In this document: piece by piece, positions 941-63,018 of the stretch
Position numbering within the stretch: the first letter of the stretch is position 1
Layout: every line of letters starts with the position of its first letter
Assembly (NCBI GenBank): GCA_947585065.1
Contig: CANPWX010000001.1
Location: forward strand, 7,274 to 71,273
Reading direction: 5' to 3'
Length of the DNA stretch: 64,000 bases
Source: an uncultured Bacilli bacterium
Lineage (GTDB): Bacteria; Bacillota_I; Bacilli_A; RF39; UBA660
Program-made: the position numbers and the translations under genes
The notes under the pieces: model-generated
Told to the model about the DNA's origin: nothing
Database searches by the model: none
What the model saw: the letters and a program-made list of their open reading frames with translations, nothing else

Positions 941-1054
941 TAAATTACTTATAAAGGTATCAATGATACCATAAAAATCTTTCTTATTTAATAAACTTAA
1001 ATAAGAAAGGAGGCGGAAAGGTCAAGGTATAAAGATCTCTTGACCGATAACCGC

Positions 1055-2887: not shown

Positions 2888-2898
2888 TAATGCTTTAA

Positions 2899-2932
2899 GG
2901 ACTAAATTACTTAAGTAATTTAGTCTTTTTTT
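2899..2932 (+). terminator. Rho-independent terminator (GGACTAAATTACTTAAGTAATTTAGTCC-like hairpin followed by T8)
   Basis: Inverted repeat followed by TTTTTTTT immediately after the stop at 2887. Confidence 0.6.
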
Positions 2933-2975
2933 TATATTATATTAAGGAAAATAAAAATTAAAGGAGGTAATCCTT

Positions 2976-5015: not shown

Positions 5016-5026
5016 GGTGAATAATA

Positions 5027-5052
5027 AAAGACTTAAAATAAGTCTTTTTTTT
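5027..5052 (+). terminator. Rho-independent terminator (AAGACTTAAAATAAGTCTT + T9)
   Basis: Perfect hairpin plus T-run right after the stop at 5015. Confidence 0.65.
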
Positions 5053-5133
5053 TGGTTTAAAATAATTAAACTATTTAAAAAAACTTTTAATTATAATAGA
5101 AAGAAAAAAGATAGATAAAGGGAGGTTTTTTAC

Positions 5134-5865
5134 ATGACAGTAGAAGACGTAAAAGAATTATTAGAATTAATAACTCCTTATATTTATGTCATCGCCCCTA
5201 TAATTTTTGGTATTTATTTAAAACTTAGAGATAAATTTAAAGAAACTCAAACAAAAATAAAAGATTTAGATGTAGCAAAAGCAAAAGAAGAATATAGCGT
5301 GTGAAAGCATGAAGAATCACAAAGAGTTATAAGAAAAATTAAAGATATGTGTAATCTTTATAAAGATAAAAGCAATGCTGGTTTAGCTCAATATTTGCAA
5401 TTAGAAAATGGAACCATGGCTACTAGTAAAATATGCAATATGTTTGTATCTTGTTTAGCTGAAGATGATAGATATGGTAGAATACCTAAATTAAGTAGCA
5501 GATTACAAAGAGTGCCATATGCAAAAGTAACAAGTTGAATTAATAAAATTATTCAAAATAAAGAAAGCTCAATTAATTATGTATTAACACCAAATGCGGC
5601 TGCCGCTGATTATTCTTTTACTGACATCATTGATGCACCAGAGATAAAATCTTGTATTATTGCTCCAGTTTATGACCAAAACGAAATATTATTAGGTATG
5701 TGCATTTTTTATTATCCTGAAATTAATTTCTGTAACCATGAACAACAAGAGATAGAACTAATTAATCGTTTTAGAACAGCTATTGAGAGCGTCTTATGAG
5801 AATATCATAATGATAGAAAACATAAAAAACAAACCTTAAAGTTGGAGGGCGAGATTAATGAATAG
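5134..5865 (+). CDS. Hypothetical protein (243 codons, 2 in-frame TGA)
   Basis: RBS AAAGGGAGG then ATG at 5134. Frame 1 is open through TGA codons to TAG at 5863-5865. It contains track ORF 5347-5538. Confidence 0.5.
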
Positions 5866-6192
5866 TTTATATGATGCAAGATTTTCAATTTTTATCATTT
5901 TAGACATATTAGGAATTTGTTTATCTGCTTTTATATTTAAAAAATTTATAAAAAAGTTTCCTAACAAGCTAATTCCATTAGTGAATATTAGTATGTCTAT
6001 GATAACAACAATTTGTTATTTAGATTATCATTTCCAAAAGAAAGCACCTATGTTATTTTTAATAGTAATGGGTTTAATTGATGGATTAGCGGCAACGGGA
6101 TTACATCAATTAGTAAAACAAACAAAACAATATATTTTTATAAAATGAAAAATTAAAAATTTTAGAAAAGACAAAAGAAAAATTGTTATGTA
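5858..6192 (+). CDS. Small hydrophobic membrane protein (possible holin-like), 1 TGA
   Basis: The ATG overlaps the upstream stop. There are two to three hydrophobic segments (IFIILDILGICLSAFIF; MITTICYLDY; LFLIVMGLIDGLAATG). The ORF continues past TGA at 6146 to TAA near 6190. Confidence 0.4.
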
Positions 6193-6227
6193 ATTAACAA
6201 TTTAAAAGAGAAAAAGGAGAGATATAT

Positions 6228-9200: not shown

Positions 9201-9377
9201 TATAAAGAAATAGATAAAGAATATGCTTTATTATTACAAAGATTAATAGATGAAGCAAATAGTAGATATTTATGGCATGATAATAAATGGTGATTATTTA
9301 CTAAAGATAATGATGTTCTTTGTTCTGTTGAAGCTCTCATAGATTACTGTTGTGAAATAGTAAAGGGGAGATATTAA
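6228..9377 (+). CDS. Very large virion structural protein (about 1049 codons) formed by TGA read-through of track ORFs 6228-7175, 7338-7643, 7704-8345, 8418-8954 and 9084-9293
   Basis: All five segments are in frame 0 and separated only by TGA codons. RBS GGAGAG then ATG at 6228, TAA at 9375-9377. Late-arm position suggests a baseplate or tail protein. Confidence 0.5.
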
Positions 9378-11434
9378 TGAAAAAGAGATATGAATATTCT
9401 AATGATGCTGATTTTTTAAATGAATTTAACAATGAGAAATTAAAAGAACAATTTGTAAAAATAACCATTTTAGATTGATTAGAAAGACCTATCCAAGAAG
9501 TACAAGGTATTGTGACTGGAGGAACTATTAATTTAGATGGTAATTCTAGTGTTCGAAGAACAGTTAATCTTTCTGCTTTTATAAATGAAGAAGAAATAGC
9601 TAGAGTTACCAATCTAGATAATTTATTTGCTATGAATAAAAAAATGTTTTTAGAAATTGGTTATATAAATACAACCGATAAATATTTACAATATCCAATT
9701 ATATGATTTCCGCAAGGACATTTTATAATGTTTAATCCAAATTTAACTCATTCAGTGGGCGGAAGCTCGCTTCAAGTATCATTAAGAGACAAAATGTGTT
9801 TATTAAATGGAGAGTGCGGAGGTACCATACCCGCATCTACGCAATTTGATGAATATGATACTATTGATGATAAAGGCAATTGGATAACTCAAAAGCCGAC
9901 TTTTGAGCAAATTATAAGAGAACTTGTAAATCATTTTGGAGGAGAACAACTTGGAAAAATAATTATAAGTGATGTTCCTAGAAGAGTAAAAAAAGTAATG
10001 AAATGAATTGGAAATTCTCCAGTTTATTTAATTAATAATGAAGGTTCATACATTATGAGTACAAATTATGCGGATGTCGCAGATAAATCATATCAAGTAT
10101 TTGATTATGGTGAAGACATAGGATATATATATACTGATTTTACTTGTCCTAGTGAATTAATTGGAAATGCTGGAGATAATGTATGTACTATATTAGATAA
10201 AATAAAAAATATGCTAGGAAATTATGAATATTTTTATGATGTTGATGGAAATTTTATTTGACAAGAAATTAAAAATTATCTAAATACAACAAAAGCAACT
10301 GTAGATTTAGAAAAAATGACTAAAGATGATTATTTAATTGATGCAAGTAAAGGTAAAACAGTATACAATTTTAATAATAGTGTTTTAATTACTTCATTTT
10401 CTAATTCTCCTCAATACAATAAAATTAAAAATGATTTTATTGTATGAGGAATTAAAGAAAACGCTAATGGAAATAATGTTCCTATTAGATATCATTTAGC
10501 TATTGATACTAAACCAAAAATTGGAAATATATATGATGTATTTTTTTATGAAGATCCCGATGATGGATTAACAAAAGCAAAAATGCCTATATTATATAGA
10601 AGTTTTGCAGAAATTAATAAAACGCCTGGCGCAGCTGGAATATTTTATAAAGCTACTGATACTAATATAATATATCAATGAAATGGTAATAAAGAAAAAT
10701 ATGAAGAAGTAGATACTGAGACAACTCAATTTGTTAAAGTTCAAACTACGGATTGACGTTCTGAATTGTATTTACAAGGAGTTCAAGCTGAACCTCTAGG
10801 GATAGCTTCAAATTATTATTATACAGAATTGATGAACGAGTGGCCAAAGCTGTATAATTTACAAAAGGATTTTTACATAGATAATGAAGGTACAAAAATA
10901 TATACTGGTGGATTTTATGATGAAGTATTAAAAACTCCTAGTAATATAGATTATTACCTAGATTTTATAGATTCTAATGCTGCGATATCGCAATTCAGCG
11001 TTAATAATATTGGTCGTCGCACTCACGTTGTTAATAGTAATGATATTAATTGTGTATTTGAACCTACTATTCCAGATTTTATAATAATAGAATTAGGTAG
11101 ACCAGATACTGAAGAAAAACGTAGAGAATGCGAAGCTAAAGGGCAAAATTACATTCAAGTGGATACTTCAATATTTAATTTATTAGCTACTGGTGGAAAT
11201 TTAAATTCTGCATATAATGAAGTTAAAATGTTATTGCATGAATATACAAGTTATAATGAGAGTGTTAATATTCAAACAGTTCCTATATATAATTTAGAAC
11301 CAAATATTAGAATTGGCGCTAGGGATATAGAAAGTGATATCTATGGCGATTATATGATTTCTAGTATTTCTATCCCTCTTGATGTTGGTGGAACAATGTC
11401 AATATCAGCAACTCGAGCTTTAGAAAGATTTTAG
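9377..11434 (+). CDS. Structural protein (about 685 codons) joining track ORFs 9512-9706, 9728-10006, 10055-10261 and 10766-11434 via TGA codons
   Basis: The ATG at 9377 overlaps the stop of the previous gene (TAATGA). All segments lie in frame 2. TAG stop at 11432-11434. Confidence 0.5.
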
Positions 11435-11453
11435 AGTAAAAGGAGTGTTAAAG

Positions 11454-12155
11454 ATGAGTTATAAATTCGGACAATTTAGAAAAAGTCAATTGCAATCTTA
11501 TTTAACACCTTTAGAATATACTTTGGATGATATAAAAGTAGAATCAAGTCTTTCTAAAGGAGTTATTTTTGTAGATAAAGGAATTGATTTATCTGGAAAA
11601 AATATATTACAAGCATTGACTGAAAATAATAAACAAAGAAGTTATTATTTAAGATTTAGAATAGAAAAACAAGAAACTAATCAATTAATTAATATTAGAT
11701 TAATTAATACAGATAAAAATAAAGATAATGTTCAAACCATAAAAACTATAAATGTTGAAAGCGGAAAAGATGATTATTCTACATTTGAATTAGTTATAAG
11801 CCCAAATGATAATCATTCTTATAATCAAATATTTTTTGAATTAAATAGAGAATTAATTGATTATAATACTCTTAATAGCGATGGTACTTATGGTAGAACA
11901 GTTAAAATAATAATTGAAAGATTAGATGAAATATATAATGTTATTGATTTTTTAAACCCTTCTATTGAAAATAAAGGAAGATTGAAACAAATTGGTATCC
12001 AAGGTCCTCCTGGTTTATTAATGAGCATTAATGGAGAAGATATTAGGATTGGTAGAAGTGGAATATATGAAATTAATAATAAAATAAATGTTACTTTTAT
12101 AGGCTTCATTATTGAAGCAGATGAAAAATATTTCATTTTAGATTATCAATATTAA
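11454..12155 (+). CDS. Structural protein (234 aa) with C-terminal GIYE motif
   Basis: RBS AAGGAG then ATG at 11454. The ORF is intact without TGA. C-terminus reads DIRIGRSGIYEINNKINVTFIGF..ILDYQY. Confidence 0.55.
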   Translation: MSYKFGQFRKSQLQSYLTPLEYTLDDIKVESSLSKGVIFVDKGIDLSGKNILQALTENNKQRSYYLRFRIEKQETNQLINIRLINTDKNKDNVQTIKTINVESGKDDYSTFELVISPNDNHSYNQIFFELNRELIDYNTLNSDGTYGRTVKIIIERLDEIYNVIDFLNPSIENKGRLKQIGIQGPPGLLMSINGEDIRIGRSGIYEINNKINVTFIGFIIEADEKYFILDYQY

Positions 12156-12168
12156 GGAGGAAAGCGCA

Positions 12169-13434
12169 ATGGAATACAATAGTTTTTATGGAGGAAGAAG
12201 AGGAGCTTCTTTCGTTATTATAAAGTCTTATAAAAGTATTGCTGATATGGTTGCCGCTTTTCAACAAGGTGGAGCTTATAAAGTAGTTAATTATGATGAA
12301 TATGTTTTAATTGATACTGAAAATAAAAATGATAAAGATAATGGTAAAATTTATCGTAGAGGGTATGAATATAACAATTCTATGGGTGGAGCTGATTATA
12401 TTGGACAAATTGTCGGTCCAGCTGGTATGGCTCCGCATACTGAAATGCATACTATTGAAGAAGTAGAACAAATAGCTGAAAGAGATGGTTTTGAATATAG
12501 AAAAGGCAGCGGAAGCTATGATGTTCAAGGAAATAATTTAATACCTGGAAAATATGTAGAACCTGGTTCTGGAGTTATTCATTATAATGATGAAATTAGT
12601 TGAGCTTATTGTTCTGTAAGAGATATCAATTCACATGAATCAACAGCTCATATTGGTTTTAGATTTCCTTATACTGTAATTGATTATACAACTACATCAA
12701 TTAGTACATATAAAGATGGTAATTATACTGATACATCTAGTGCAGAAAGAATTGATGATGGCAGTCATCCTTTTTATGAAAAATGAAATATTAAAATACC
12801 TAAAGGTATTAAAGGAGATACATTAAAGAATTTTAGAGTTATGACTGCTAATACTGCAATTGAGCCTTACTCAGGTAGAGATGATGATATTGCTAACAAT
12901 AGAAAAGTATTAGTTTATGATTATTATATTTATGATGATAAAGAAGATGGAATTTTTAAAACTTATTATGTAGGAGATTATAATAAAATTTCTGATGTAA
13001 AAGTTGAAAAGAATGGAAAAGTTACTATTAGTTATGAACATGATGATGATGATAACTATTTATTAAACATTCCTATTTCAGTTAATATATTAACAGGAGA
13101 AACAGAAGGTAGTGGAAATCAAAAAATTGAAATAACATATGCCGATGGGACTAAACAGGAAATAGGTAATCCACTTAATTATATAATTAAAACTGCTATT
13201 GATAATAGATATCATTTATTAGTTTATTATTCAGACCCTGAAAAAAGAAATGCTGGAACTAAAGTTTCTTGAGATGGAAATGATGATTGGACTGACTTAG
13301 GATATATTGGTGACGGAACTGGGAATGGAGCAGTCGCTGGGAAAGAAGATGACGAAGGCGTTAAAGAAGTTGCTAACCATATGCCTGTATATAGTGTATG
13401 GATGATAGTAGAAGAAGATGGTAACAATGAATAA
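12169..13434 (+). CDS. Structural protein (about 421 codons) joining track ORFs 12169-12603 and 12841-13272 through TGA codons
   Basis: RBS GGAGG then ATG at 12169. Frame 1 is open through four TGA codons to TAA at 13432-13434. Confidence 0.5.
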
Positions 13435-16832: not shown

Positions 16833-16862
16833 TAGATTTATTTCTATCATAGCCTTTTTTTT
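16822..16862. terminator. Bidirectional terminator between convergent arms (AGGCTAT..ATAGCCT with T9 on + and A-run on -)
   Basis: Hairpin flanked by T-runs on both strands at the point where + strand genes end and - strand genes end. Confidence 0.55.
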
Positions 16863-16868
16863 TGTTTA

Positions 16869-21901: not shown

Positions 21902-22444
21902 TTAAACTTTTTGATACAGTTTAACCTCTTTTGTTTTTAAACTTTTTTGGACATCTATAACTCTTTGATTGCGGGAACCGCGTAGCCAGAGCGTAATGTC
22001 TCGTTCTGATTGAATATATGGCCCATCTATTAAAACATCAATTTTAGATAGTATTGTATGTAAGATAAACTCATCTCTGATTAGATCTTCCCAAACATAG
22101 CCTGTTCACAAGAATATACGCGTGTTTGGGCAATCTTGTTTAATCACATCAAGGATTGCCGCCGTATTCACAACGTTATCATTATCTTTCCATAATGGCT
22201 CGCCACCAAGAATACTTAAATTTCTTTGAATACCATTAGCTGTTAAATCTTTTTTAATAGTATCAATCAATTTACTCGTCCACATTTCATCTCCATAGCT
22301 ACTATCTCAGGCTTCTGGGTTATGACACCCAGGACAATGGAGAGGGCAACCAGATAGGAAGACACTTACACAAGTGCCTTCGCCATTAACTATGTCGTTT
22401 GGATTGATACCAGCAACATGAACCATGCCTGTCATTATTTCCAT
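21902..22444 (-). CDS. nrdG: Anaerobic ribonucleotide reductase activating protein NrdG (radical SAM), 2 in-frame TGA = Trp
   Basis: Reverse translation gives ..GEGTCVSVFLSGCPLHCPGCHNPEA[TGA]DS.. and ..NTRIFL[TGA]TGYVWEDL... These align with E. coli NrdG CPGCYNKSTW and DIWVWTGY, so both TGA sit at conserved Trp positions. Confidence 0.8.
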
Positions 22445-24771
22445 CCTTGTAATTTCTTACTATGTTTATATCTATCTTCAGTTTCCGCCTGTTTTCCTTT
22501 ATTAAACGCTGTCTTATAGTCGCCAGTAAGATAGCCTGTTACGCGACGAAGTTGTTGAATATGTTCACTATCACACATAGGACAATGGTCATTGAATTCA
22601 TCGCAATATCCACATTCAAGACAAGTGTCATTTGGAACATTCAAAGCGAAGTAAGGTATGTCTTTATCTATAGCATAATTAACTATTTGTTCAAGTGCTT
22701 CTAAATTATTTTTAACTCCACCATCTAATTCTACATAAGTAATACAACCAGCAGAACTATATCCAGTTAATTGACTTTCAATATCAATTTTGTCATATGG
22801 ACTCATTTCTTCTCATACTGGAACATGGATACTATTAGTGAAGTATTCTCTATCGCTAATATTTGGTATTTCTCCATATCTCTTTTTGAATTTCTTCATT
22901 GCGGTATAGCAAAGATTTTCAGCTGGGGTATAGTAAACACCAAAATTTAATTTATATTCTTCTTTAAATTCAGCACAACGTTTTTTAAATAATGCTTCAA
23001 TTTTTTTAGCAAGTTCCATACCTTCTTCAGTTGTATGGTCTTTACCAATTAAGATTTGAAGTGTTTCCGCAAGACCAATTTGACCCAAAGCCAAGGTACC
23101 ATGCTTCAATGCACTTCGAATACCTTCTTCAGGAACATAGCCTGCCATTAAACCATTCTCATACATAAACTTTGCAGACTCGGGTGATTGAGAACAGATA
23201 TAATCAAATCTTTCAATTAGCATATCTTTTGCTTCATAAATTTTATCATTTAATAATCTTAAGAATATGTCAATAACTTTGTTAGGATCAAAATTTTGAG
23301 TTCTAATTTCTTCTTTTGCTTCCATAGCAAGAGTAGGCATTATTATAGTAACAGGACATATATTACCTCTACCATCCTTAAGTTGTCCAAATCCGTTTAT
23401 ATCGAAACCATTCGCCGTACGGCACCCCATCGTAGAGAAATAAGTTCTAGGGTCATTTAGATCATAACCTACATTACCGCTCCAGTCTACATTTGCATAA
23501 TTTGGATATAATCTTTGAGCTGTTGATTTAAGTGCTAATTGGAATAAATCGTAGTTAGGATCTCCAGGTTTTCGGTTAACACCTTTCATACATTGAAATA
23601 TACCACATGGGAATATAGGTGTTTTTCTTACTTTGCCTACGCCTTTAATAGAACCTTCAAGCAATGCTTTTGTAACCATTCTGCCTTCAGGAAGCGTGCA
23701 TGTTCCATAATTAATGCTCGTGAATGGAAGTTGATTTCCAGATCTAGATTGAAGTGTATTTAGATTATGATACATACCTTCTACTGCTTGTTTTAATTCA
23801 CGTTCAGTTCTTTGATAAGCATCATCAAAAGCCATAGTATATTTATCTTTTTTATTAAATTCATAATCTAAAATACTAATGTCTTTTACTTTATCTTCAT
23901 AAATAGCTTTACCAAGCTCTGCACGGAACTCTTCTATTTCATCTATTTTTCTTTTGTTTTCATCTGAATAATCATTGTAATTTTTAACTTCTGGTTGGCT
24001 ACCAAAAACAAAAGCAGATTCAATATCTAGTGCTTCTTGTAAATGTTTATAAAAAGATTTACGAACATATGGAACCATAGTTCAATCTAGGTGCGTTGCG
24101 GAAACACCACCAAACTGCTGCAATGACTGAAGTTGAAATATTACTGCAACTAATTGAAATGCAGTATTGATTGATTGAGCTGGACGAACATCTGTTTGTC
24201 TAGTGTTAAAACCTTTTGCTAATAAATCATCAAAAGGTACAGATAAACAGTTATGCATACCAACTGCATAGCTATCAAGGTCGTGAATATAAATTTCATT
24301 ATTTAAATGATTATTTCTAGCCATTGGTGATATTATGTAATTTAATGCATAGTCTTTCATTAACTCGCTACGGGCTTCACCCATACGACCTCCAAATGAA
24401 TGTTCATCAACATTAGCATTTTGATTTTGAACATCAGAAGCATCAAGTTTTTCAGCTATATTTTTAATTAGCTCTGAGTTCTTTTGTCTTATTTTATTTC
24501 TTTCTTCTCTATAAAGGATATATGCTTTTGCGACATCTTTTCTTTTAGTAGACATTAAACCTTTTTCTACTAAATCTTGAATTTCTTCAATTCCAGGTGT
24601 CTCTTCTACTTCTTCATAATATCCTTCAATAAAATCTGCAATATTTTCAGCTTTTATTTCAGCATATTCAGTTATTTCTCCGTCTACGCTTTTAAAAGCT
24701 GCAAGTATTGCTTTTTGAATTTTTGATGGATCAAATTCTACTATTCTTCCATCGCGTTTCTTTACGTTCAT
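22435..24771 (-). CDS. nrdD: Anaerobic ribonucleoside-triphosphate reductase NrdD (about 778 codons; track ORFs 24082-24771, 22813-24078 and 22435-22806 joined by two in-frame TGA)
   Basis: Class III RNR features: N-terminal ATP-cone-like MNVKKRDGRIVEFD, C-terminal zinc ribbon CLECGYC..CPMCDS, and glycyl radical motif RRVTGYL. The junctions are exactly TGA, in frame. Confidence 0.8.
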
Positions 24772-24902: not shown

Positions 24903-27900
24903 CTAGTCTTCAGTAATACCTTCTCTATCGTGAGTTAAATTAATACTACCATCATAATAAACATCAGTTATCTTGTAAAGTTGGTGGCAGCCACTATTCT
25001 TGTATGTCTTTGTCACAAACGAATCGTCCCTACGATAACCAGCAACTAATAACTTAATGCCTCTTGTGAACCAGCCCTTTTCTACTACGTGTTTCACTCC
25101 ATCTTCGCCAAGCTCACTTAATTGTCTATTATACATTGCATAATATTCTTTTGTAAATTTAACATTTACAACACCTGTTGGAGTTAATAATGTTACAGAT
25201 GAACGATTGTCATTTTTGCCAATAACTGTTCCAATTATCTTATAAATTTTATAAATAGGAATATCATGACCATTCCTTTTGAAGAATGTATCTACAATAG
25301 GTTCAGATGGAAGATTATTAAAATCTACAATACCATATTTATCTACATTAACATTTTTTAATTCATGTTCATGATAATAGAAACATAATGCCTCCATTTC
25401 ATATGAGCTAATATTACCTAATGCATATTTATCCCAACACTCTTTAAATAATAATGTATTAAATTTTTTTAATATTTCTTCTTGATTTTCTTTAATCCAA
25501 TCTCTTGCTCCATCCATTACGTTTTGATAAATTTTTTCCCATATTGTTTGTTGGATACAAGTTAAACCATTAATTACTTCAAGTTTATCCAAATCAAAAT
25601 TCTTATTATAAAATTCTTCACAAGCATTATCAAATACAAAATATTTGCCTACTTTTTTATTTGCTTTTAAGTATTTTGTAAATAAATAAGTTCTTTTTTG
25701 TAAATCTAAACTTGCGGGAACTAAATCATGTTGAATTAAACCATTAAAATTTTGTAGAGTTATTCTTTTTTTTGCTTCACATACTTTAGATACATAATAC
25801 ATCATAACAAATTTTCGAGGTTCAATACCCATCTCAGCGGCGGTTGCCGCATCAGTCTTATCAAATGCTCCACCTTTAATTAAACTAAACATTGCACTTT
25901 TATTTAATGGACATCTATTTATAAAATCTGCTATATTTATATAAGGTCTAAATTTAATTATTTGTTCTATTGTTGAACTATTAACATTACTTAAGGCTTT
26001 CATACCAAATAATATTTCATTATTTTCAACATCTGGTTTAAAACTGTAACTAGATTTATTTATATCTACTAAACTAACTTTAATGCCTCTTGATATAATA
26101 TCTCCAATAGCTTTTGCAATTTTACCATAATCAGTTGCTTTTTCTTTTTTTTCAACAATATTACCTTCATCATCTTCTTCATACATTGAATCATCTTCTT
26201 CAAGACTACCGCTATTAACAACTAAACATGCGGTATTCCAATATATTGGATTCCATCTTGTTGCTATATACATAGTTTGGAAACCTATAAAACTATATGC
26301 CAACGCATGAATGATACTAAATGAATAACCCATTTGAGGTCCAACTCCGCATGTCCAAACGTAATGTCCTAAACAAGATGATTTTGCTTGAGTTAATACT
26401 TTATTTTTTAATTCAGGAATTTTACTCATTTGTTTTTTACCAACTACTTTACGTGCGGCATTTGCTTCCGCAAGAGTAAAACCACAAATGTTTTCATCCA
26501 TTAACATTCTCATAAGTTGCTCTTGACTTGGTGGAACTCCATAAGAACTTTTAAAATATGGTTCTAATGCTAATTGTTCTGTTTGAGTTAATCCATACTC
26601 TCTCATTTCTTTATACCATAAAGATATATCATTTTTAAATCTAATATATTTTTCCATTGGAGCTTCTTGACCTTTTTCCGCAGTCATTAATCTCATTAAA
26701 CCATTAGCATCCGCCATTTCCATCATACTTTGAGGTTTAATTTTCTTTGCAGCTTGTCCTCCAACTTCGCTATCAAATTGGAAGATATTTAATACACTAT
26801 TCTCTTGAAGAACTTTCCAAGTATTTTGGTCTTCAATAGGTAAAACACTTGGATGAAAATATTTATCATATACTTCTCTTAATGTTAAATCGCTATCAAT
26901 TTCTCCATATTCTTGTAATAACCTAATTGCTTCACATAATTTATCTTGGACTTCTGTTACTAGAAAATCATATTTAGTCATTCCGCATGCTTCACACATA
27001 TGCAAATCATATGCAGTTATAATCTCACCTTTTGGTGTTCTCATAAATGTTCCAAATTCATATGGGTCTTCATCAAATAAAATTACACCTGATGCATGAC
27101 TACTTCTTTTATTTACTAATCCTTCAATACCTTCCATAATCTCTAATAAACCTGGATACATATTAACTTCATTAATAAACATTTTAATTGGTTTTCTACC
27201 TTTATCTTCATTACCATTTATAACATCACTTAATGACCATAAGAAACCACGTTCACTAGGAATTAATGAACTTAAATATTGTGCGGTATCTACATCTATT
27301 CCATCCGGGTATTCTTCACTTCTGTACCCGCGGCAAGCTGTTAAAATTGTTGAACGAGTTCCTTCTGTTCCAAATGTTGCAATTAATGTACAACCTAGAT
27401 TTTTACGACTTAAATCATCAATTTCTGCATTAAATTTTTTTCCACGCTCTTCTTTTATTTTCTTTAAGATTAAAGGTCTTTTACTTGGACATAAATCTAA
27501 ATCTATATCTCCTAATTCAACTCTTTCTTTATTCAAATATCTCCAAAATGGAAGATTCCATTTAATTGGATCAAGTTGAGTTATACCTAATAAATAATGA
27601 TTTAATCCTGAACAACTTGAACCACGACCTGCGCCAACCATACTGCCGCATTCCCAAAATAAATCTACATAATGTTGTAAAGTTACTGGATACATAAACA
27701 TATTAGTTCCTAATTTTTCACTAATTGTTTGTTTAATATCAGCTTCTTCTTCAAGTCTACTTAAATATTCATCATTATATTTATCTATTTTAATTAATTT
27801 ACTTACACATTCATTTACCCAATATCTATTTACTTTATCATCTGATATAAACATATCTTTTAATATTGGATATTTATTTATTTCTTCTGGAATAGCTTTT

Positions 27901-28859
27901 ATATAATCTTTAACTTCTACTTTTGGAATAGTTTGATTATGTGCTAAACTAAAATTCTCTATTTTATTATAAATTTCAAAACTATTACCAAACATTTCAT
28001 TTATAAATTCTTCACTAAAATCTGATGCTTTTAAATTTTCTATTATTTCTTCATTACTTTGAAGATAAGCATATTCATAAAAACTATCTACTTCACGTTC
28101 TCCAAATTTACTATTTAAATATGCTTTATGAACGTATCTATCTTCTTTTTTAAGATAATGTGCATCACTACCAATTACCATTTTTAAATCAAATGCTTTT
28201 GCAATAGAAGGAAATCTTTTATTAACTGCAATTTGTTCTGCACTACAACCTGGCGCACATTCTATATAAAAATTATCTTCGCCAAACACTTCTTTACACC
28301 ATAACAAAAAATTTACTATATTATTATGTGCAGTCTCCGCACCATATACATCATTTATTTTTTCTGCATTTATTAAATTTAAAGTATTAACACTTAATTC
28401 TCCACCTAAACAAGCAGTTGTTGCTATTAAAGTATTTGGATATTTTTTCATTATTTCTTCAATATCACTTTTTAAAGTTGGAACTCTTTCTAATCCTCTG
28501 TCCCAATAACTATTCATCCATGCTCTTGATGATAACTCTCTTAATGCTCTATATCCTTCTTTATTTTTTGCAATTAAAATAAAGTGATAATATCTTTGTC
28601 CCATATCACGTGTATCTGTTAAATAAATTTCATTACCTAATGCGACTTTAAAGTCAGGATGTTCTTTATGAATTTCGTCTGCATAAAAATTAACTTCTGG
28701 TGCTGCTGAAAGACACTCATGGTCTGTGATTGCAATACCAGCTAAACCTAATTCAATTGCTCTATTAATTAAATTTTTTGGACGATTGATTGAGTCTAAA
28801 AGTCTCAAATTACTATACATAGTGTGTGAGTGCGGCTCAAAACGTGGATTCATAAACAT
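24903..28859 (-). CDS. dnaE: DNA polymerase III alpha subunit (DnaE-type, N-terminal PHP domain), 1318 aa, no TGA
   Basis: PHP motif HSHTMYS..DH at the N-terminus. Size and overall architecture fit DnaE. All roughly 20 Trp codons are TGG. Confidence 0.8.
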   Translation of the reverse strand: MFMNPRFEPHSHTMYSNLRLLDSINRPKNLINRAIELGLAGIAITDHECLSAAPEVNFYADEIHKEHPDFKVALGNEIYLTDTRDMGQRYYHFILIAKNKEGYRALRELSSRAWMNSYWDRGLERVPTLKSDIEEIMKKYPNTLIATTACLGGELSVNTLNLINAEKINDVYGAETAHNNIVNFLLWCKEVFGEDNFYIECAPGCSAEQIAVNKRFPSIAKAFDLKMVIGSDAHYLKKEDRYVHKAYLNSKFGEREVDSFYEYAYLQSNEEIIENLKASDFSEEFINEMFGNSFEIYNKIENFSLAHNQTIPKVEVKDYIKAIPEEINKYPILKDMFISDDKVNRYWVNECVSKLIKIDKYNDEYLSRLEEEADIKQTISEKLGTNMFMYPVTLQHYVDLFWECGSMVGAGRGSSCSGLNHYLLGITQLDPIKWNLPFWRYLNKERVELGDIDLDLCPSKRPLILKKIKEERGKKFNAEIDDLSRKNLGCTLIATFGTEGTRSTILTACRGYRSEEYPDGIDVDTAQYLSSLIPSERGFLWSLSDVINGNEDKGRKPIKMFINEVNMYPGLLEIMEGIEGLVNKRSSHASGVILFDEDPYEFGTFMRTPKGEIITAYDLHMCEACGMTKYDFLVTEVQDKLCEAIRLLQEYGEIDSDLTLREVYDKYFHPSVLPIEDQNTWKVLQENSVLNIFQFDSEVGGQAAKKIKPQSMMEMADANGLMRLMTAEKGQEAPMEKYIRFKNDISLWYKEMREYGLTQTEQLALEPYFKSSYGVPPSQEQLMRMLMDENICGFTLAEANAARKVVGKKQMSKIPELKNKVLTQAKSSCLGHYVWTCGVGPQMGYSFSIIHALAYSFIGFQTMYIATRWNPIYWNTACLVVNSGSLEEDDSMYEEDDEGNIVEKKEKATDYGKIAKAIGDIISRGIKVSLVDINKSSYSFKPDVENNEILFGMKALSNVNSSTIEQIIKFRPYINIADFINRCPLNKSAMFSLIKGGAFDKTDAATAAEMGIEPRKFVMMYYVSKVCEAKKRITLQNFNGLIQHDLVPASLDLQKRTYLFTKYLKANKKVGKYFVFDNACEEFYNKNFDLDKLEVINGLTCIQQTIWEKIYQNVMDGARDWIKENQEEILKKFNTLLFKECWDKYALGNISSYEMEALCFYYHEHELKNVNVDKYGIVDFNNLPSEPIVDTFFKRNGHDIPIYKIYKIIGTVIGKNDNRSSVTLLTPTGVVNVKFTKEYYAMYNRQLSELGEDGVKHVVEKGWFTRGIKLLVAGYRRDDSFVTKTYKNSGCHQLYKITDVYYDGSINLTHDREGITED

Positions 28860-32537: not shown

Positions 32538-32810
32538 TTAAAATAGGTAGTCACCAGACCCAGTTATTTCATAATCAGTTATGAAGATTTGTGGTGTAAT
32601 ATTTCCCATCCATTCATTTTGATTACATTTACCTACTACATTAATTGAAATATATGTTTCAGTAAAATTTTGCAATGCATAGCATTCTTCTTCACTAGCA
32701 TCAAATTTCATTAAACTAATTTTATTAGGAAGAGTTATTTTCAATGTATTATTTGTTTTTCTATAAACAGTTACCATATCTTTAGTTATTTTTAAATTTT
32801 CAACTGCCAC
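32538..32810 (-). CDS. Hypothetical protein (90 aa)
   Basis: Intact ORF. Confidence 0.35.
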   Translation of the reverse strand: MAVENLKITKDMVTVYRKTNNTLKITLPNKISLMKFDASEEECYALQNFTETYISINVVGKCNQNEWMGNITPQIFITDYEITGSGDYLF

Positions 32811-32834
32811 AAGAGCTTCATTAAAATCTTTACC

Positions 32835-34367
32835 TCATAGATTATTTAAATTAGCAATAGTAAGAATTTCATCAGATTGAACATCAGCGCCTTGATATAT
32901 ATAATCTACATAATATATTGGCTCTGCGGAAATGTTCGCTAAAGCGTCATCAGTTTTAGATAAGAATTCTTCTAACCTATCTGCCGCAATGCAAAGTCCA
33001 AAAGCATTTTCATGTCCTTGGCACCATTCAGCACCCGCCGCCTCACATATAGATTTAAAATTAGTGATACCAGTTTGTTCATATCCACGTGCAGAACCTT
33101 GATATGTTATTTTTTCATCTGCTACCGCATTATATCTACCAGTTTCAAAATTAATCTCAGTAATCTTCATTGTTTTATAATTTGGTTCAATTACTTTTGT
33201 TAATATACAACAAGGTCTTTGATATTTATTTGCTATCTTATTAGCAATTAAGCCTGCTATATTTTTATCTATTTCTTTTATATCTAAAGCAAATAATATT
33301 ACTTTATGATTTAATAAATTTTCTTCTTCTATTGATTCTTCTAATATTGACATAGTTAAATCTTGTGCTTTTGTTTGTCTATTTTTTACATTAGTAGACA
33401 TGCGGACAGCCTGATCAACTAAACGTTCCATTTCTCCAAGTTTATGACCACGTTTATTCGAAGGTATTAATTGAAATGCTTCATAATTAAGCATTGACTT
33501 AAATAATAATTCTTTTTCTTCTATTGTACCACTGCGTTGAACTGCATTAATCATTGGTACGATATAAAATGCGGCGTCTATTGAGCGAATATGTTCGCCT
33601 AATTTAAACTTATTTTTTTGCCACATTTCAAATATATATGGATTATGAATTCTTGCAGGCTCAAAACCTTTCAATATTAAGTGTTTTGTTTCTATTGAGG
33701 TAAGACTCATCATATCTCCAGTAAGACCCAATGCCACTAAATCAAGATATTGGTCTGCATAATTCTTACCAAATAAACTATCTAAATATCTACAAAATTG
33801 TCATACTACACCAACTCCTGACAATTCTTTATTTGGATAATCACATAATTGATTATTTATTGTAATAGCATATTCACTTAAATGGTCTGCTAAATGATGG
33901 TCTAATATAATTGTTAATATTCCTTTATCTTTTAATTCTTTATGTTGTTCATAATCATTTGAAGATGAGTCTGGAGCTATTACTAATGAAAAATTTTTTG
34001 AATTAATATAATCCATAGTATCTTGTAAACCGTGTTGTTTGCCTTCATGAACTCACCAATGTAAATGATTTTCTACTCATGTTGGGAATACATCGTGAAG
34101 ATAATTGATTAATAATGCGGAAGCTGTAAAGCCATCGCAATCGCAGTCTACTATTACTACTGCATCTTTATCTTCACTAATACAAGATATAGCGGCAACC
34201 GCTGCAGCCTTTAAACAATCTTGTCCAAACGCACTTGGTTCATTAATATCCGCATCAGTAGTATTCAAATAATGTTGAATTTCTGCATATGGAATATGTC
34301 TATTAGTTAAAATAGTTTCTAAAGCGTTGTAATTTTTATTTATTGGGTTAATTAACTTATATTTCAT
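32835..34367 (-). CDS. DHH-family phosphoesterase (RecJ-like ssDNA exonuclease-like), 3 track ORFs joined by TGA
   Basis: Motif I DCDCDGFTAS and motif III ILDHH. The junctions at 34077 and 34053 are TGA, in frame. A C-terminal DHHA1-like region is present. Confidence 0.6.
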
Positions 34368-34368
34368 A

Positions 34369-34587
34369 TTATCTAAATCCTTTCATTTCTTCTGGAAACA
34401 CAACTGCATCTTGCATATTTACTATTCATTTACGACAAGCAAAATAGTCATCAAAATGTATTTCACACTCACCAGATTCTGTAACAGTATTGTCTGGGAA
34501 TTCATAACGAATATATCCAGTAAACCATACATCTCCAAATCCTGAAACTCCATATCCATTCACTATAAATTTACTTTTCATCTTCAT
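34369..34587 (-). CDS. Small hypothetical protein (about 72 aa, 1 TGA)
   Basis: RBS AAAGGAAG then ATG. Reverse translation gives MKMKSKFIVNGYGVSGFGDVWFTGYIRYEFPDN... Confidence 0.35.
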
Positions 34588-57058: not shown

Positions 57059-57847
57059 ATGAAATATTGTTTAAATTATAATAGAACAACACAACAAATG
57101 AAATGTATTCAAGAAGCAGATGAATGAACTATTGAATATAATAGTAAAGATAATACTTTATTAGAATTTTTAGAGTTGCATCAAAATATAAGAATAAATT
57201 TATATATAAAAGAATTATTAGATTTAAAATTTTTAGAAGATTTATGTAATAAATATAAAAATTTATATTTAAAATTATCAAAAGAATATTATGAAAAATT
57301 AAAAGAAAATAAAGTGGATATAAGATTTTATTTTGATATATTAGCAACTGATTGAGATACATTTATTGGATGTATTAATTTTGGCGTTAGTGATATATAT
57401 ATTGCTGAAAATTTAGGATTCGAGTTAGATAAAGTTGCGGCAATCGCTCATTCTAAAGATATAAAATTAAGAGCATTTCCAGATGTAGCGCAATCTAAAT
57501 GAAAAGATTCTGACTCATTAAAAAAATTTTTTATTAGACCTGAAGACATAGATTTCTATAGTGATTATATTGATGTAATAGAATTTTATAATGACGATAA
57601 AAAATTAGAAATTTATTATAAAATATATGCAAAAGATAAAAAATGGTTTGGTAAATTAAATGAAATTATATTAGATTTTAATAGTGAATTAGATAATAAA
57701 TATATAATTCCGAGATTTCCAGAAAAGCGCGTTAGTTGCGGTAAAAGTTGCCTAAAAGGTGGGCATTGCCGCCGCTGTGATAGAATTGAACAATTGTCTA
57801 ATACTCTTGAAGAAAGAAAATTAGTTATTAAAATTGATAAAAATTAA
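57059..57847 (+). CDS. Hypothetical protein (262 codons incl. 4 TGA) not in the ORF track because TGA splits it
   Basis: Strong RBS AAGGAGG then ATG at 57059. Frame 2 is open through TGA at 57125, 57353 and others to TAA at 57845-57847. C-terminal Cys cluster CGKSCLKGGHCRRCD. Confidence 0.45.
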
Positions 57848-57862
57848 AAAATATTATATAAT
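57834..57862 (+). promoter_or_regulatory. Sigma-A-type promoter TTGATA-N17-TATAAT
   Basis: Consensus promoter overlapping the 3' end of the previous gene. RBS AAGGAGG and ATG at 57892 follow. Confidence 0.55.
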
Positions 57863-57891
57863 ATAAATATATATAAAGGAGGAATAAAGAT

Positions 57892-58203
57892 ATGGCTAGA
57901 GGTGCAAATAGCAAGACTATTGCTACTGATATTATTTTAAAAGCATTTCCAGGAAGTTTTACTTATGATAAGGAAATTAGAATTCCTTTTGTGGAAGATG
58001 GAGAAAATATTCAATTAAAATGTGTTTTAACTTGTGCAAAAACAAATGTTGAAGAAAATGGAGAAAATGCTATTCCAGGTGAAGTATCTAATAAAATTAA
58101 TTTTGAAGAACATGAAAAATCAGAAGAGCAAGTTAAACATACTGAGATTAGTGAAGAAGAGAAAGAGAATTTAAGAAATTTAATGAATGTATTAGGATTA
58201 TAA
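57892..58203 (+). CDS. Hypothetical acidic protein (103 aa)
   Basis: Intact ORF. Confidence 0.45.
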   Translation: MARGANSKTIATDIILKAFPGSFTYDKEIRIPFVEDGENIQLKCVLTCAKTNVEENGENAIPGEVSNKINFEEHEKSEEQVKHTEISEEEKENLRNLMNVLGL

Positions 58204-58204
58204 T

Positions 58205-58471
58205 ATGTGGCAAGAAAGAGTTAAAAATGTAATAATTGTTTCTTTTCTTCTAGTATGTTCAGGATGGTGTTTTTTTGAATTTATTAAAGATTATAAAGAA
58301 AGGAATAAACTTCAAGATAGTTTAAATTCATGTTTAATTAATAAACAAGAATTAGGAAATGAAATAGATACTTTGAACAATGATAAAAAAGAATTGCAAA
58401 ATCAAATAGAAATATTGAATAATGAAAAAGCAAATTTACAAAAGGAAATAGAAAATCTAAAAAAAAACTAG
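58205..58471 (+). CDS. TM + coiled-coil protein (88 aa) ending at TAG just after an A9 run; candidate upstream (frame 0 of a frameshift) part of a fusion
   Basis: N-terminal TM VIIVSFLLVCSGWCFF then a heptad-like coiled coil. The stop is TAG at 58469-58471. Confidence 0.5.
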   Translation: MWQERVKNVIIVSFLLVCSGWCFFEFIKDYKERNKLQDSLNSCLINKQELGNEIDTLNNDKKELQNQIEILNNEKANLQKEIENLKKN

Positions 58472-58848
58472 CTGAACAGGCGGCAGCTGCCGCATCTAAA
58501 AATTATAAATTAACAAGTTTTTGGTTTAATGACGGATATGGAACTGGCTCTTGTACTGGCAGTGGTTTATGCGAAAAAGATTTTCAAATAAATGACAAAG
58601 GTTGGTATACTTATCAAGGTAAATTAGTATTAGCTTCCGCAACTAGATATTTATTAAAATATGGATATTCTGAAATTGCAGGGAAAAAATATTATAATTA
58701 TTATGATACTTTAACTATTAATATCAAAGGTAAAGATTATAAAGGAATTATATTAGATTCTTGTGGTGCATGCATGAAAAATAATATTTTAGATTTATTT
58801 GTATCTAATGGCAAATCATCTATTACTACTGGTATAACGGTGAAATAA
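58423..58848 (+). CDS. 3D-domain (MltA/YuiC-like) cell-wall hydrolase-like ORF with no start codon; likely expressed by -1 frameshift from 58205-58471
   Basis: Frame 1 is open 58423-58848 with no ATG, GTG or TTG start near its 5' end. C-terminus ..KGIILDSCGACMKNNILDLFVSNG resembles the 3D-domain motif D.GG.IKGN.IDLF. Upstream sits the A9 run at 58459-58467 and the palindrome GCGGCAGCTGCCGC at 58480-58493. Confidence 0.4.
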
Positions 58849-58866
58849 GAAAATATATTTCACCGT

Positions 58867-58895
58867 TTGATTTTTTTTAAATTTTATAATATAAT
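58867..58895 (+). promoter_or_regulatory. Sigma-A-type promoter TTGATT-N17-TATAAT
   Basis: Consensus promoter. RBS AAAGGAGG and ATG at 58928 follow. Confidence 0.55.
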
Positions 58896-58927
58896 ATTAT
58901 TGTAAAAATTAAAGGAGGAATTTTATT

Positions 58928-59104
58928 ATGGAAATTGAAAAAGTATATGATGATGAAGAAATGGTAATTTTACCACCATATTGGTGGGTAGAATATGTTG
59001 ATGATGATGGACATAAACATTTAGCAGCAATTAAAGATATCGCTTATTTAGAATATATAAAAACTAGATTTACTGTTACAACTGTCAAGGCTATTGAAGA
59101 ATAG
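58928..59104 (+). CDS. Small hypothetical protein (58 aa)
   Basis: RBS AAAGGAGG then ATG. The ORF ends at TAG. Confidence 0.4.
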   Translation: MEIEKVYDDEEMVILPPYWWVEYVDDDGHKHLAAIKDIAYLEYIKTRFTVTTVKAIEE

Positions 59105-59106
59105 AC

Positions 59107-59135
59107 TTGATTTTTTATAAAAATTTTGATATAAT
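59107..59135 (+). promoter_or_regulatory. Sigma-A-type promoter TTGATT-N17-TATAAT (TGATATAAT)
   Basis: Consensus promoter upstream of the Hsp20 gene. Confidence 0.6.
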
Positions 59136-59183
59136 ATTTATGTAAAGATTAGAGATGTTTATTTTAAGGAGTGATTTTTTAGT

Positions 59184-59576
59184 ATGTTTGATTTATTTGA
59201 TACAATTTTAAACCCATTAAATTGGGACAAAGATTTTTATAAATTCAATAGAGAAGAAAAAGATATGCATCCATATTCTGTTCAAGCTGATAAAAATGGT
59301 AATTTTATTATCGTTCATAATATCCTAGGTATTAACAAAGAAGATATAAAATTAACAAAAGAAATAGAAGGCGGAAATACATATATTTTATTAACTGGTT
59401 CTACCAAAGATAGTTTTACAGGTAAAACATATTCAGTTAATTCAAGATTTGCTTTAGATGATAAACAATTAGATTTATCTTCAATTAAAGCACAAGATAA
59501 AAATGGATTATTATATATAATAATCGCAAGCAAAAAAGTAGAAGAAAAGAAAGTAAATAGTATAGCAATAAATTAA
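59184..59576 (+). CDS. Small heat-shock protein (Hsp20/alpha-crystallin family)
   Basis: Alpha-crystallin domain pattern: PYSVQADKNGNFIIVHNILGINKEDIKL..GNTYILLTG..YSVNSRFALDD..DLSSIKAQDKNGLLYIII. Confidence 0.6.
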   Translation: MFDLFDTILNPLNWDKDFYKFNREEKDMHPYSVQADKNGNFIIVHNILGINKEDIKLTKEIEGGNTYILLTGSTKDSFTGKTYSVNSRFALDDKQLDLSSIKAQDKNGLLYIIIASKKVEEKKVNSIAIN

Positions 59577-59811: not shown

Positions 59812-60558
59812 ATGATAGGAATTTATAAAATACAAAATAAAATAAATGGTAAAATTTATATTGGTCAAAGTATTCATATTGAAAGAAGATTTCAAGAGCA
59901 TTGTTTTCCTAGTTCTAATTCTTTAATTAGTAGAGCAATTCATAAATATGGAAAAGAAAATTTTGATTTTACAGTAATAGAAGAATGTAAAATCGAAGAA
60001 TTAGATAAAAAAGAACAATTTTGAATAAAAAAATATAACTCTTTAATACCTTATGGATATAACATTAATGAAGATACCTCAACAACACATACTAATTATT
60101 ATTATAAAGAAAAAGGAGAAATTTTATCTATTATAAATGATTTACAATATTCAAATTTATCAATGAGGCAAATAGCAGATAAACATAATATTAATATTAG
60201 CAATGTGTCTAGAATAAATAGAGGAAGTACACATAAGCAAGAAGGCTTAATATACCCTTTAAGAAAAATTAATGAATACAATTTAAAAAATTATTGTATA
60301 GATTGTGGTAAAGAAATTTCTAAAGGACATTTAAGATGTAATAGTTGTGAGGGTGTTAATAAAAGAATAAAGTTAGAAGATATGCTTATTACTAGAGAAG
60401 ATTTAAAAGATTTAATTAGACATATTCCATTTACAAATATAGCAAAACGATATGGAGTTACTGATAACGCAATTAGAAAATGGTGTGATAAATATAATTT
60501 ACCTAGAACTAAAAAAGAAATTAAATCATATTCAGATAAAGAATGAAAGAATATTTAA
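59812..60558 (+). CDS. GIY-YIG homing endonuclease (2 in-frame TGA)
   Basis: N-terminal GIYKIQNKINGKIYIGQS..RRFQEH. C-terminal helix-turn-helix DNA-binding tail. Track ORFs 59812-60024 and 60163-60546 are in frame and joined by TGA. Confidence 0.6.
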
Positions 60559-62387: not shown

Positions 62388-62468
62388 GTCATAATAGTTC
62401 AGTGGAAGAACATTACATACATTATTGTATTGTAAAGGTCGCAAGTTCGAATCTTGCTTATGGCTACC
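62388..62468 (+). ncRNA. Aberrant tRNA-like element: normal acceptor, D and T arms, but the anticodon arm is replaced by a 9-bp bulged hairpin with a 4-nt loop (13-nt region TACATTATTGTAT)
   Basis: Acceptor GTCATAA/TTATGGC, D arm GTTC-AGTGGAA-GAAC, T arm GCAAG-TTCGAAT-CTTGC. There is no 7-nt anticodon loop. Confidence 0.35.
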
Positions 62469-62599: not shown

Positions 62600-63018
62600 G
62601 GGCTTGTATTTGGTTTCGACTAGATTGCAAGAGTATTGGAATACAAGTAGTAGGCAGTTACTTAAAAGGCAACAAAAAATAAATAACAACATTTTTTCAA
62701 AAATTGTTAGTAAAGTTAAATCTTTATTCGCTGTTAATAGCGTAGTCTTCGCGTAAGGCTAAACAATCTTCTATGCGAAGTATCAGAGTAAACAGAGAAA
62801 AGTATAGTCGTATTAACTAGACAAAGTTTACTATTCTATTGACTGTCCCTAGCCGTGGAATATAGAATAATTTACTTATATGCGTAGGGCTGACTCTAAG
62901 ATTTGTATGTGGTAGGAGCAACAGATAGAACGATATGCACAAAACTTGTAAGGTAAGAATGAGATTTCCAGTATATCCCAATACTAGGACATGGGTTCGA
63001 GTCCCATCAGGTCCACCA
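62600..63018 (+). ncRNA. ssrA: tmRNA (SsrA)
   Basis: The 5' end GGGCTTGTATTTGGTTTCGAC matches the consensus GGGGCUGAUUCUGGAUUCGAC. The 3' end is a tRNA-like domain ATGGG-TTCGAGT-CCCAT-CAGGTCC-A-CCA with G3-U70. An internal open frame ..AAC AAC AUU UUU UCA AAA AUU GUU AGU AAA GUU AAA UCU UUA UUC GCU GUU AAU AGC GUA GUC UUC GCG UAA (tag ending ..AVNSVVFA) lies about 85-157 nt from the 5' end. Confidence 0.7.

Follow-up and report, generated by a model that had tools for sequence, protein, structure and literature searches.

A Conserved A-Run Junction in Phages Suggests Programmed −1 Frameshifting between a Membrane-Anchored Coiled Coil and a Divergent MltA/YuiC-like Domain

Organization of the Split Gene

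The window, i.e., the whole 64-kb stretch of phage DNA analyzed here (28% GC), contains at 58.2 kb a gene divided between two reading frames of the forward strand. The upstream, 0-frame ORF (58205–58471, +) starts with an ATG, encodes 88 amino acids ending in ..ENLKKN, and has a Shine–Dalgarno-like AGGA (58194–58197, +), read directly from the sequence, 7 nt 5′ of the ATG. It is laid out as a basic N-terminus, a single hydrophobic helix (~residues 9–27), and a coiled coil, bearing out the initial annotation, which had described a membrane/coiled-coil ORF at this position. The hydrophobic segment, VIIVSFLLVCSGWCFFEFI (58229–58285, +), is a membrane anchor predicted by a hydrophobicity count on the 88-aa sequence. 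The ORF closes with GAA AAT CTA AAA AAA AAC TAG, and both this ending and the A9 run within it (58459–58467, +) are as first described. The run is the only A9 or T9 in the 64 kb that falls within coding sequence. Its 3′ part forms, with the next base, a slippery heptamer, A_AAA_AAC (58462–58468, +), in phase with the 0 frame and directly followed by the 0-frame stop codon TAG (58469–58471, +).

The −1 frame is closed by a TAA and a TGA at 58420–25 and then stays open from 58426 to a TAA at 58846–58848. The part that would be read after a shift (58468–58848, +) encodes a linker and a predicted enzyme domain, and its translation contains ..KKKLAEQAAAAASKNYKLTSFW...ILDSCGACMKNNILDLFVSNG.. No ATG, GTG, or TTG was found in this frame before 58774 (116 codons), in agreement with the earlier description of a frame open to 58848 that lacks a nearby start; the earliest near-cognate start codon, an ATA at 58588, is already within the domain. 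The −1 frame ORF also has no signal peptide of its own, and a −1 shift within the A run, as initially proposed, is the only evident route by which such a start-less and signal-less ORF could be expressed. Read-through or recoding of the TAG was considered and rejected: beyond the TAG, the 0 frame runs into a TAA after 14 codons and never reaches the domain. In the joined protein of 214 residues, the domain, a predicted double-psi β-barrel of the MltA/YuiC-like type, spans residues 99–214 (58498–58845, +) and includes two invariant aspartates, D185 in LDSCG (58756–58758, +) and D197 in LDLFV (58792–58794, +). An intrinsic terminator-like hairpin of 12 pairs followed by a T run (58836–58877, +) overlaps the end of the −1 frame ORF.

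Two further elements lie close to the shift site. A GC palindrome, GCGGCAGCTGCCGC (58480–58493, +), encodes Ala5 in the −1 frame and starts 12 nt past the A9 run, 11 nt downstream of the heptamer. It folds into a 5-bp GC stem with a 4-nt loop at −9.8 kcal/mol, and the 65-nt region around it has no extra stability compared to shuffled sequences (z = −0.81). On the other side, an AGGA occurs 15 nt upstream of the shift site.

The junction motif is not rare in DNA of this composition: AAAAAANTAR has 25 matches in the window versus 22.9 expected. Since the motif is common in an AT-rich window, one genome alone is suggestive rather than decisive, and it is the comparison with relatives that carries the case beyond chance. 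Runs of A9/T9 are strongly avoided in the window, with three found versus 21.5 ± 6.2 expected. The other two 9-base A/T runs, at 5045–5053 and 16855–16863 (− strand A9, i.e., T9 on the + strand), are intergenic when TGA is read as a sense codon. Thus, coding sequence avoids long homopolymers everywhere but at the frameshift site.

Phage Context, Genetic Code, and Hosts

The phage reads TGA as a sense codon, in a code 4-like manner. For instance, sense TGA joins two fragments of NrdD (22435–24771, −) into one protein of 778 aa, whose Pfam NRDD match (118–770) spans both TGAs. Five TGAs occur in a RecJ-like ORF (32538–34409, −), two in a GIY-YIG endonuclease (59812–60558, +), and three to nine in each of the large ORFs at 5–13434 (+), possibly virion genes, while the genes for DNA polymerase, topoisomerase, ligase, helicase, and primase have none. 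As TGA is sense, standard ORF lists fragment part of the window. The distribution of TGA among the genes agrees with the pattern reported for stop-codon-recoded gut phages. No TGA-decoding tRNA was found within the window. A tmRNA (62600–63018, +) lies in the tRNA cluster; it matches Rfam RF00023 over the full model length with 56.4 bits (gathering score 47) and was not reported by ARAGORN. A tRNA at 62388–62465 (+) scores 53.6 bits with the Rfam tRNA model and is called Cys(ACA) by ARAGORN, with an unusual anticodon position and a poor anticodon stem.

The split gene has as neighbors small ORFs of unknown function, HSP20 (in relatives), tRNAs, and a homing endonuclease. The putative virion-gene ORFs are found at 0–13.4 kb versus 58.2 kb for the split gene, which stands outside any recognizable lysis or virion module. 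Of the functions listed in the initial annotation, endolysin is therefore not supported as the main role, and ejection is an unlikely role for a product that has an N-terminal membrane anchor and whose gene sits among small non-virion genes.

The DNA polymerase of the window (24903–28859, −) shares ~40% identity with YorL of SPbeta-like phages. In phi3Ts, the gene adjoining yorL encodes SpsX (L135, 7981–8631), a membrane-anchored protein of 216 aa in which a helix at the N-terminus and a Lys-rich linker precede a true 3D domain. This is the layout of the joined protein of the window, and the YorL-like polymerase, together with the yorL-adjoining SpsX, suggests an old association of this enzyme type with the phage group. 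Metagenome-assembled genomes that carry relatives (L136–L165) bear the labels uncultured Bacilli, Erysipelotrichaceae, Ca. Coprovivens, Tenericutes, Holdemania, and Clostridium, a range that suggests monoderm, AT-rich Bacilli of the gut as hosts. Bins labeled Bacteroidaceae or Proteobacteria that hold contigs of 110–120 kb are probably mis-binned phage genomes.

Distribution of the Split among Relatives

The downstream 126 aa, used as the query of a protein search, retrieved 279 proteins. Most are single ORFs of 170–220 aa comprising a hydrophobic N-terminus, a coiled-coil or acidic linker, and the domain. A minority, 96–125 aa long, start with ‘MTSFW’, which reflects a TTG start chosen by the gene caller at the Leu of a conserved (Y)(R/K)LTSFW strand. 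In the DNA behind these short calls, an upstream ORF of 85–100 aa terminates at an A run, with the domain encoded next in the −1 frame. Gene callers thus split or truncate the gene, producing ‘MTSFW...’ proteins from a TTG, and it is mis-annotated in many assemblies.

From IMG/VR and metagenomes, we gathered 134 loci of human gut, oral, and rumen origin on contigs of up to 135 kb, which together with the window make 135 loci. The −1 split at an A run is present in 73 of the 135 loci, and 56 are fused. A further −1 split (L056) was overlooked by the classification script, and two additional ones (L136 and L137) are found in MAG contigs. Only two loci appeared at first to be of the +1 type: L038, which has its own ATG and a signal-type start, and L101, which comes from a 1.3-kb contig with 1.3x coverage. 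The 73 splits comprise 46 distinct junction sequences. When the downstream domain is clustered at 90, 80, and 70% identity, they fall into 27, 21, and 13 groups, respectively, with a median pairwise domain identity of 57% and a minimum of 38%. Since the loci are related by descent, the conservation of phase among them is not fully independent evidence. A search of 50,697 GenBank phages with positions 57800–59200 (blastn) and with the domain (tblastn) gave no match.

In the fused homologues, the domain sits behind an N-terminal membrane anchor or a signal peptide. Only one fused allele, L031, has a long run at the homologous site: it carries A10 and is in frame, which matches the product that a −1 slip or one added A would give. 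A BLASTP comparison of the 88-aa ORF with the N-terminus of the fused homologue P0004 was not significant (E 2.9). As judged from these sequences, the N-terminal part is conserved as an architecture, anchor plus coiled coil, and not as a sequence.

Conserved Elements of the Junction

Comparison of homologues had been suggested by the initial annotation as a check on both the A run and the hairpin, and the two fared differently. In 71 of the 73 split loci, an A_AAA_AAN heptamer stands in phase directly before the 0-frame stop, and the two exceptions have one additional codon ahead of the stop. The last base of the heptamer is C in 29 of the 71 loci, G in 16, T in 15, and A in 11. The run is A9 in 45 split loci, A8 in 4, A7 in 11, and A6 in 11. 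Thus, 22 of the 73 loci have only A6 or A7 beside the stop, the A6 form reading TTA AAA AAC (e.g., L010 and L057). The 0-frame stop is TAA in 47 loci and TAG in 26, and never TGA. Differences in run length amount to one codon gained or lost, or to a synonymous change of CTA to CTT; they preserve the frame, and the heptamer survives. Moreover, 28 loci also have a stop in the −1 frame, 10–16 nt ahead of the 0-frame stop, so that a frame change is possible only within the run. The flanking 30–45 nt differ almost totally between clusters.

The same comparison did not extend to the hairpin. No downstream RNA structure is shared among the 46 junctions (mean z = −0.36), and a conserved hairpin was accordingly rejected as a general feature. 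Hairpins of 9–11 bp, 6–9 nt past the stop, occur in a few short-linker lineages (L010, L074, L091, and L057), where they are formed by the Y-R...Y-Y codons; GC stems are found in the window and in L055 at differing distances; and the largest clade (L036/L037 type) has essentially no downstream fold. The palindrome GCGGCAGCTGCCGC, initially put forward as a stimulator, is present at the distance given for it, but neither its position nor its sequence is conserved among relatives; it is a possible stimulator, local to the window. Reading of the junction alignments revealed no upstream SD-like element common to the relatives. The conserved elements are the heptamer and the adjacent TAA or TAG, leaving the adjacent stop codon as the only universal candidate stimulator.

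Evidence That Both Frames Are Coding

Between split lineages, the downstream domain has dN/dS values of 0.04–0.2 at dS of 0.3–1.2, e.g., 0.07 for L010 versus L057. The pairs L036/L126 and L078/L095, with values near 1 or above, were set aside, as these values probably reflect an indel-shifted register in the ungapped comparison. An alignment of split-type sequences only (A1) has 24 invariant columns. By these sequence-based measures, the downstream domain is under purifying selection. The upstream ORFs are coding as well, with dN/dS of 0.1–0.6, and keep both the ..LKK(N/K) end and the basic–hydrophobic–coiled-coil layout. They are 79–103 aa long in all complete split relatives, and every complete upstream ORF reaches a hydrophobicity count of at least 12 of 18 within its N-terminal 45 aa.

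With regard to initiation, the −1 frame offers no ATG, GTG, or TTG before the domain in 53 of the 73 loci, the window included. A possible −1 frame start exists in the other 20, mostly a TTG at the Leu of LTSF, and in L010 and L011 an ATG overlaps the stop (TAATG).

Some relatives carry in-frame TGA codons in the domain. They stand at conserved Trp positions in L013, L061, and L056 (GW*YTYQ, TSF*) and where the window has Tyr in L095, L118, and L119. With a TGA inside the frameshifted domain, these six loci need two recoding events.

The Predicted Enzyme Domain and Its Fold

A structural model of the joined sequence, aligned with 86 homologues, has a pLDDT of 93.9 and consists of one helix over residues 2–97 and a β domain over residues 99–213. 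The nearest solved structures are the MltA lytic transglycosylases and YuiC, and the fold is a double-psi β-barrel. A Foldseek search against the PDB returned other double-psi β-barrel proteins, e.g., kiwellin, papain inhibitor, expansin, and PA4485, and among the viral structures of BFVD, phage proteins of 200–240 aa match most of the model length, some of them named ‘3D containing protein’.

Sequence searches give a different picture. The downstream domain matches nothing in Pfam or PHROG at E up to 1, including Pfam 3D (PF06725), MltA, and RlpA, whereas SpsX, used as a positive control, matches Pfam 3D at 2.3e-14. A profile of the domain searched against PDB sequences gave only chance matches, and neither MltA nor YuiC was among them. 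Alignment of A1 with SpsX by hhalign has an E of 5.5e-4 and 29% identity at only 30% probability; it pairs LDSCG with IDTGG and LDLFV with VDLLV, and places an Ala at the position of the first Asp in the 3D motif. Through these pairs, D185 and D197 of the joined protein are matched to the second and third Asp of the 3D motif, respectively. Both are invariant in the family, which has Ala or Ser at the position of the first. The YuiC structure paper (PMC4499186) assigns catalysis to the carboxylate of the third Asp (YuiC D162, MltA D308) and binding of the N-acetyl group at subsite −2 to the second (YuiC D151, MltA D297). Two conserved cysteines (DSCGAC) and a GWYTYQG motif are specific to the family, whose larger members have the domain fused to M23, CHAP, LysM, or Amidase_5.

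The proposed resemblance to 3D, MltA, and YuiC enzymes therefore stands for the fold and fails for the Pfam match and the first Asp: the likeness is one of fold and motif and not of family membership. We read the domain as a divergent MltA/Sps-like peptidoglycan-cleaving domain that would function as 3D domains do, predicted to be an active lytic transglycosylase that would work on the host wall from the membrane. The anchor would place the C-terminus outside the membrane of a monoderm host. For the upstream ORF, Pfam and PHROG gave only weak matches of the coiled-coil type, among them PHROG Rz-like spanin profiles at E 0.013–0.37, which are not significant. With no lysis-cassette context either, the spanin-like function once proposed did not hold up, and assignment as a holin has no better support.

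Proposed Mechanism and Alternative Explanations

That recoding takes place at the A run, whatever the mechanism, we judge to be close to certain. As for how it takes place, we consider it probable, on comparative sequence grounds, that one gene yields two proteins by programmed −1 recoding at the run, ribosomal in nature and possibly aided by transcriptional slippage. Most ribosomes would translate 58205–58471 and stop at the TAG, releasing an 88-aa protein made of the anchor and the coiled coil, while a fraction would slip back by one base on A_AAA_AAC (58462–58468). The adjacent stop codon would probably favor the slip, and the GC hairpin may also help in the phage of the window. Slipped ribosomes would then read the −1 frame to 58848 and make a 214-aa protein with the same anchor and coiled coil, followed by an extracytoplasmic MltA/YuiC-like double-psi β-barrel domain that would cut peptidoglycan. 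The short and long forms would co-assemble via their shared coiled coil, and the frameshift would set the amount of enzyme displayed. We infer that the slip is ribosomal rather than transcriptional and that both the short and the long product are made.

The closest contender is programmed transcriptional slippage, in which the polymerase stutters on A9 and some mRNAs gain one A (A10), yielding a fused ..NLKKKLAEQ.. product; ribosome sliding on poly(A) is a related variant. We regard it as possible, if on the unlikely side. A9 is the classical length for transcriptional slippage. It is also the commonest run, in 45 of the 73 loci with A8 in four more, although A9 is otherwise strongly avoided in the genome, so the run has been retained here against the general bias. 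The predominance of A9 in a run-avoiding genome and the lack of a conserved downstream RNA structure both favor transcriptional slippage or ribosome sliding, and the A10 allele of L031 indicates that the +1A product is viable. However, in transcription, A6 and A7 runs slip poorly, A6 being short for polymerase slippage, and the 22 loci that have only these runs keep both the in-phase heptamer and a domain under purifying selection. The A6 form, TTA AAA AAC, found alone in 11 loci, is a complete ribosomal heptamer. In addition, a stop codon 3′ of the heptamer is a recognized stimulator of ribosomal frameshifting with no role in polymerase slippage, and it is adjacent to the heptamer in all but two of the 73 loci. 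Retention of the in-phase heptamer even at A6 and the stop directly 3′ of it thus favor a ribosomal slip. In data from E. coli, A_AAA_AAC and A_AAA_AAT are weaker shift sites than A_AAA_AAG. The ribosomal and transcriptional mechanisms may both contribute.

Three other explanations can be given much less weight. Homopolymer runs are mutable, and L031 has A10 in frame, which would fit a DNA-level phase variation in which replication slippage toggles between A9 (enzyme off) and A10 (enzyme on) and an A10 minority makes the enzyme. This is highly unlikely, in that the split is the consensus state in 73 loci from many samples and hosts, against a single fused allele with a long run at the homologous site; that A6 and A7 runs rarely switch; and that a gene turned off in nearly every genome would not give dN/dS of 0.04–0.2 over near-saturated synonymous divergence. 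We find it just as improbable that the locus holds two separate genes, one for a small membrane protein (holin-, spanin-, or anchor-like) and one for a soluble cytoplasmic lysin, translated by coupling or re-initiation and released at lysis. The TAATG of L010 and L011, the TTG at the LTSF Leu that gene callers use in some lineages, and the weak Rz-like spanin profile matches of the upstream ORF (E 0.013–0.045) would agree with it, but these matches are of the coiled-coil type and short of significance, the domain lies behind a membrane anchor or signal peptide in the fused homologues, and 53 loci, the window among them, lack any ATG, GTG, or TTG before the domain. Even where it exists, a TTG start at LTSF would delete the conserved Y-R/K residues that precede the first strand. 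Least credible of all, and in effect refuted by the comparison of relatives, is a pseudogene or a homopolymer assembly error: some sequencing chemistries are error-prone at homopolymers, but the same split recurs in independent ENA, JGI, Logan, and IMG/VR assemblies with differing run lengths and flanks, and the domain is under purifying selection.

Returning to programmed −1 recoding, what the frameshift might achieve is a more speculative matter. The coiled coil shared by the two products suggests co-assembly, in which case the frameshift would cap the dose of a potentially lethal wall enzyme and hold it constant. One reading, which we put forward tentatively and hold to be rather doubtful as a whole, is that the frameshift is a device for both stoichiometry and timing: an abundant anchor-only protein and a rare anchor–enzyme protein would form a membrane complex with a fixed, low number of lytic transglycosylase domains, and in some relatives recoding of TGA would delay the long product, the TGA=Trp codons in the enzyme domain holding it back until the phage decoding system is active. 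This reading borrows the logic of the G/GT tail chaperones for a membrane enzyme.

Comparison with Known Systems

Among Sps/3D lytic transglycosylases, the joined protein was compared to B. subtilis YuiC (PDB 4wjt), SPbeta YorM, phi3T(s) SpsX, and E. coli MltA. Of these, SpsX and YuiC are each encoded by one ORF, whereas the gene of the window is split by the frameshift. The family also differs from YuiC, MltA, and 3D proteins in its lack of a Pfam 3D match, in having Ala for the first Asp, and in its own DSCGAC and GWYTYQG motifs. It represents an unannotated branch of the MltA/3D-like fold, with ~330 clusters at 50% identity that have no Pfam or PHROG coverage.

Sites of the A_AAA_AAN type direct −1 frameshifting in dnaX (A_AAA_AAG), IS1 (A_AAA_AAC), IS911, and IS150. 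As in these systems, the heptamer described here is in phase, the short product terminates at the site or close to it, and the long product would have the same N-terminus. The dnaX and IS3-family sites depend on an upstream SD and a downstream hairpin or pseudoknot, whereas here only the heptamer and the adjacent TAA or TAG are conserved, in a different class of gene. Transcriptional slippage sites are exemplified by the A9 of Thermus dnaX and the T9 of Shigella mxiE. The junction resembles both in having nine identical bases where two frames meet, and departs from both in that the arrangement persists in relatives with A6 or A7. A heptamer and an adjacent stop that recur with no shared RNA structure offer a natural test set for ribosomal versus transcriptional slippage in AT-rich, Firmicute-type systems.

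To our knowledge, nearly all conserved programmed frameshifts described in phages concern tail chaperones, along with a few capsid genes. Of the 2476 joined frameshift genes in the SEA-PHAGES collection on which the PRFect paper drew, 2397 encode tail chaperones and the remaining 79 hypothetical proteins. A literature search for a frameshifted phage lysin or transglycosylase found no such case, only general papers on programmed frameshifting and one Lactococcus lysin, a 1994 report of a phage lysin encoded by overlapping genes, as it is cited in PMC10885494.

The G/GT frameshift of tail assembly chaperones, described for lambda and most tailed phages (Xu et al. 2004, as referred to in PMC10885494), can also be compared with the split gene. 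Like the frameshift proposed here, it is a conserved phage −1 frameshift that gives a short and a long protein sharing their N-terminal part, presumably in a fixed ratio, and in both cases, some lineages achieve the same function with no frameshift. In contrast to G/GT, the gene at 58.2 kb lies outside the tail module, its products are predicted membrane proteins, and the extension added by the frameshift is a predicted enzyme. The family described here would thus add a widespread case, in at least 21 lineages from human gut, oral, and rumen samples, in which a non-structural membrane enzyme is the frameshifted product. If the frameshift does govern the stoichiometry and timing of the wall enzyme, this would be the first case of a conserved phage peptidoglycan enzyme under frameshift control.
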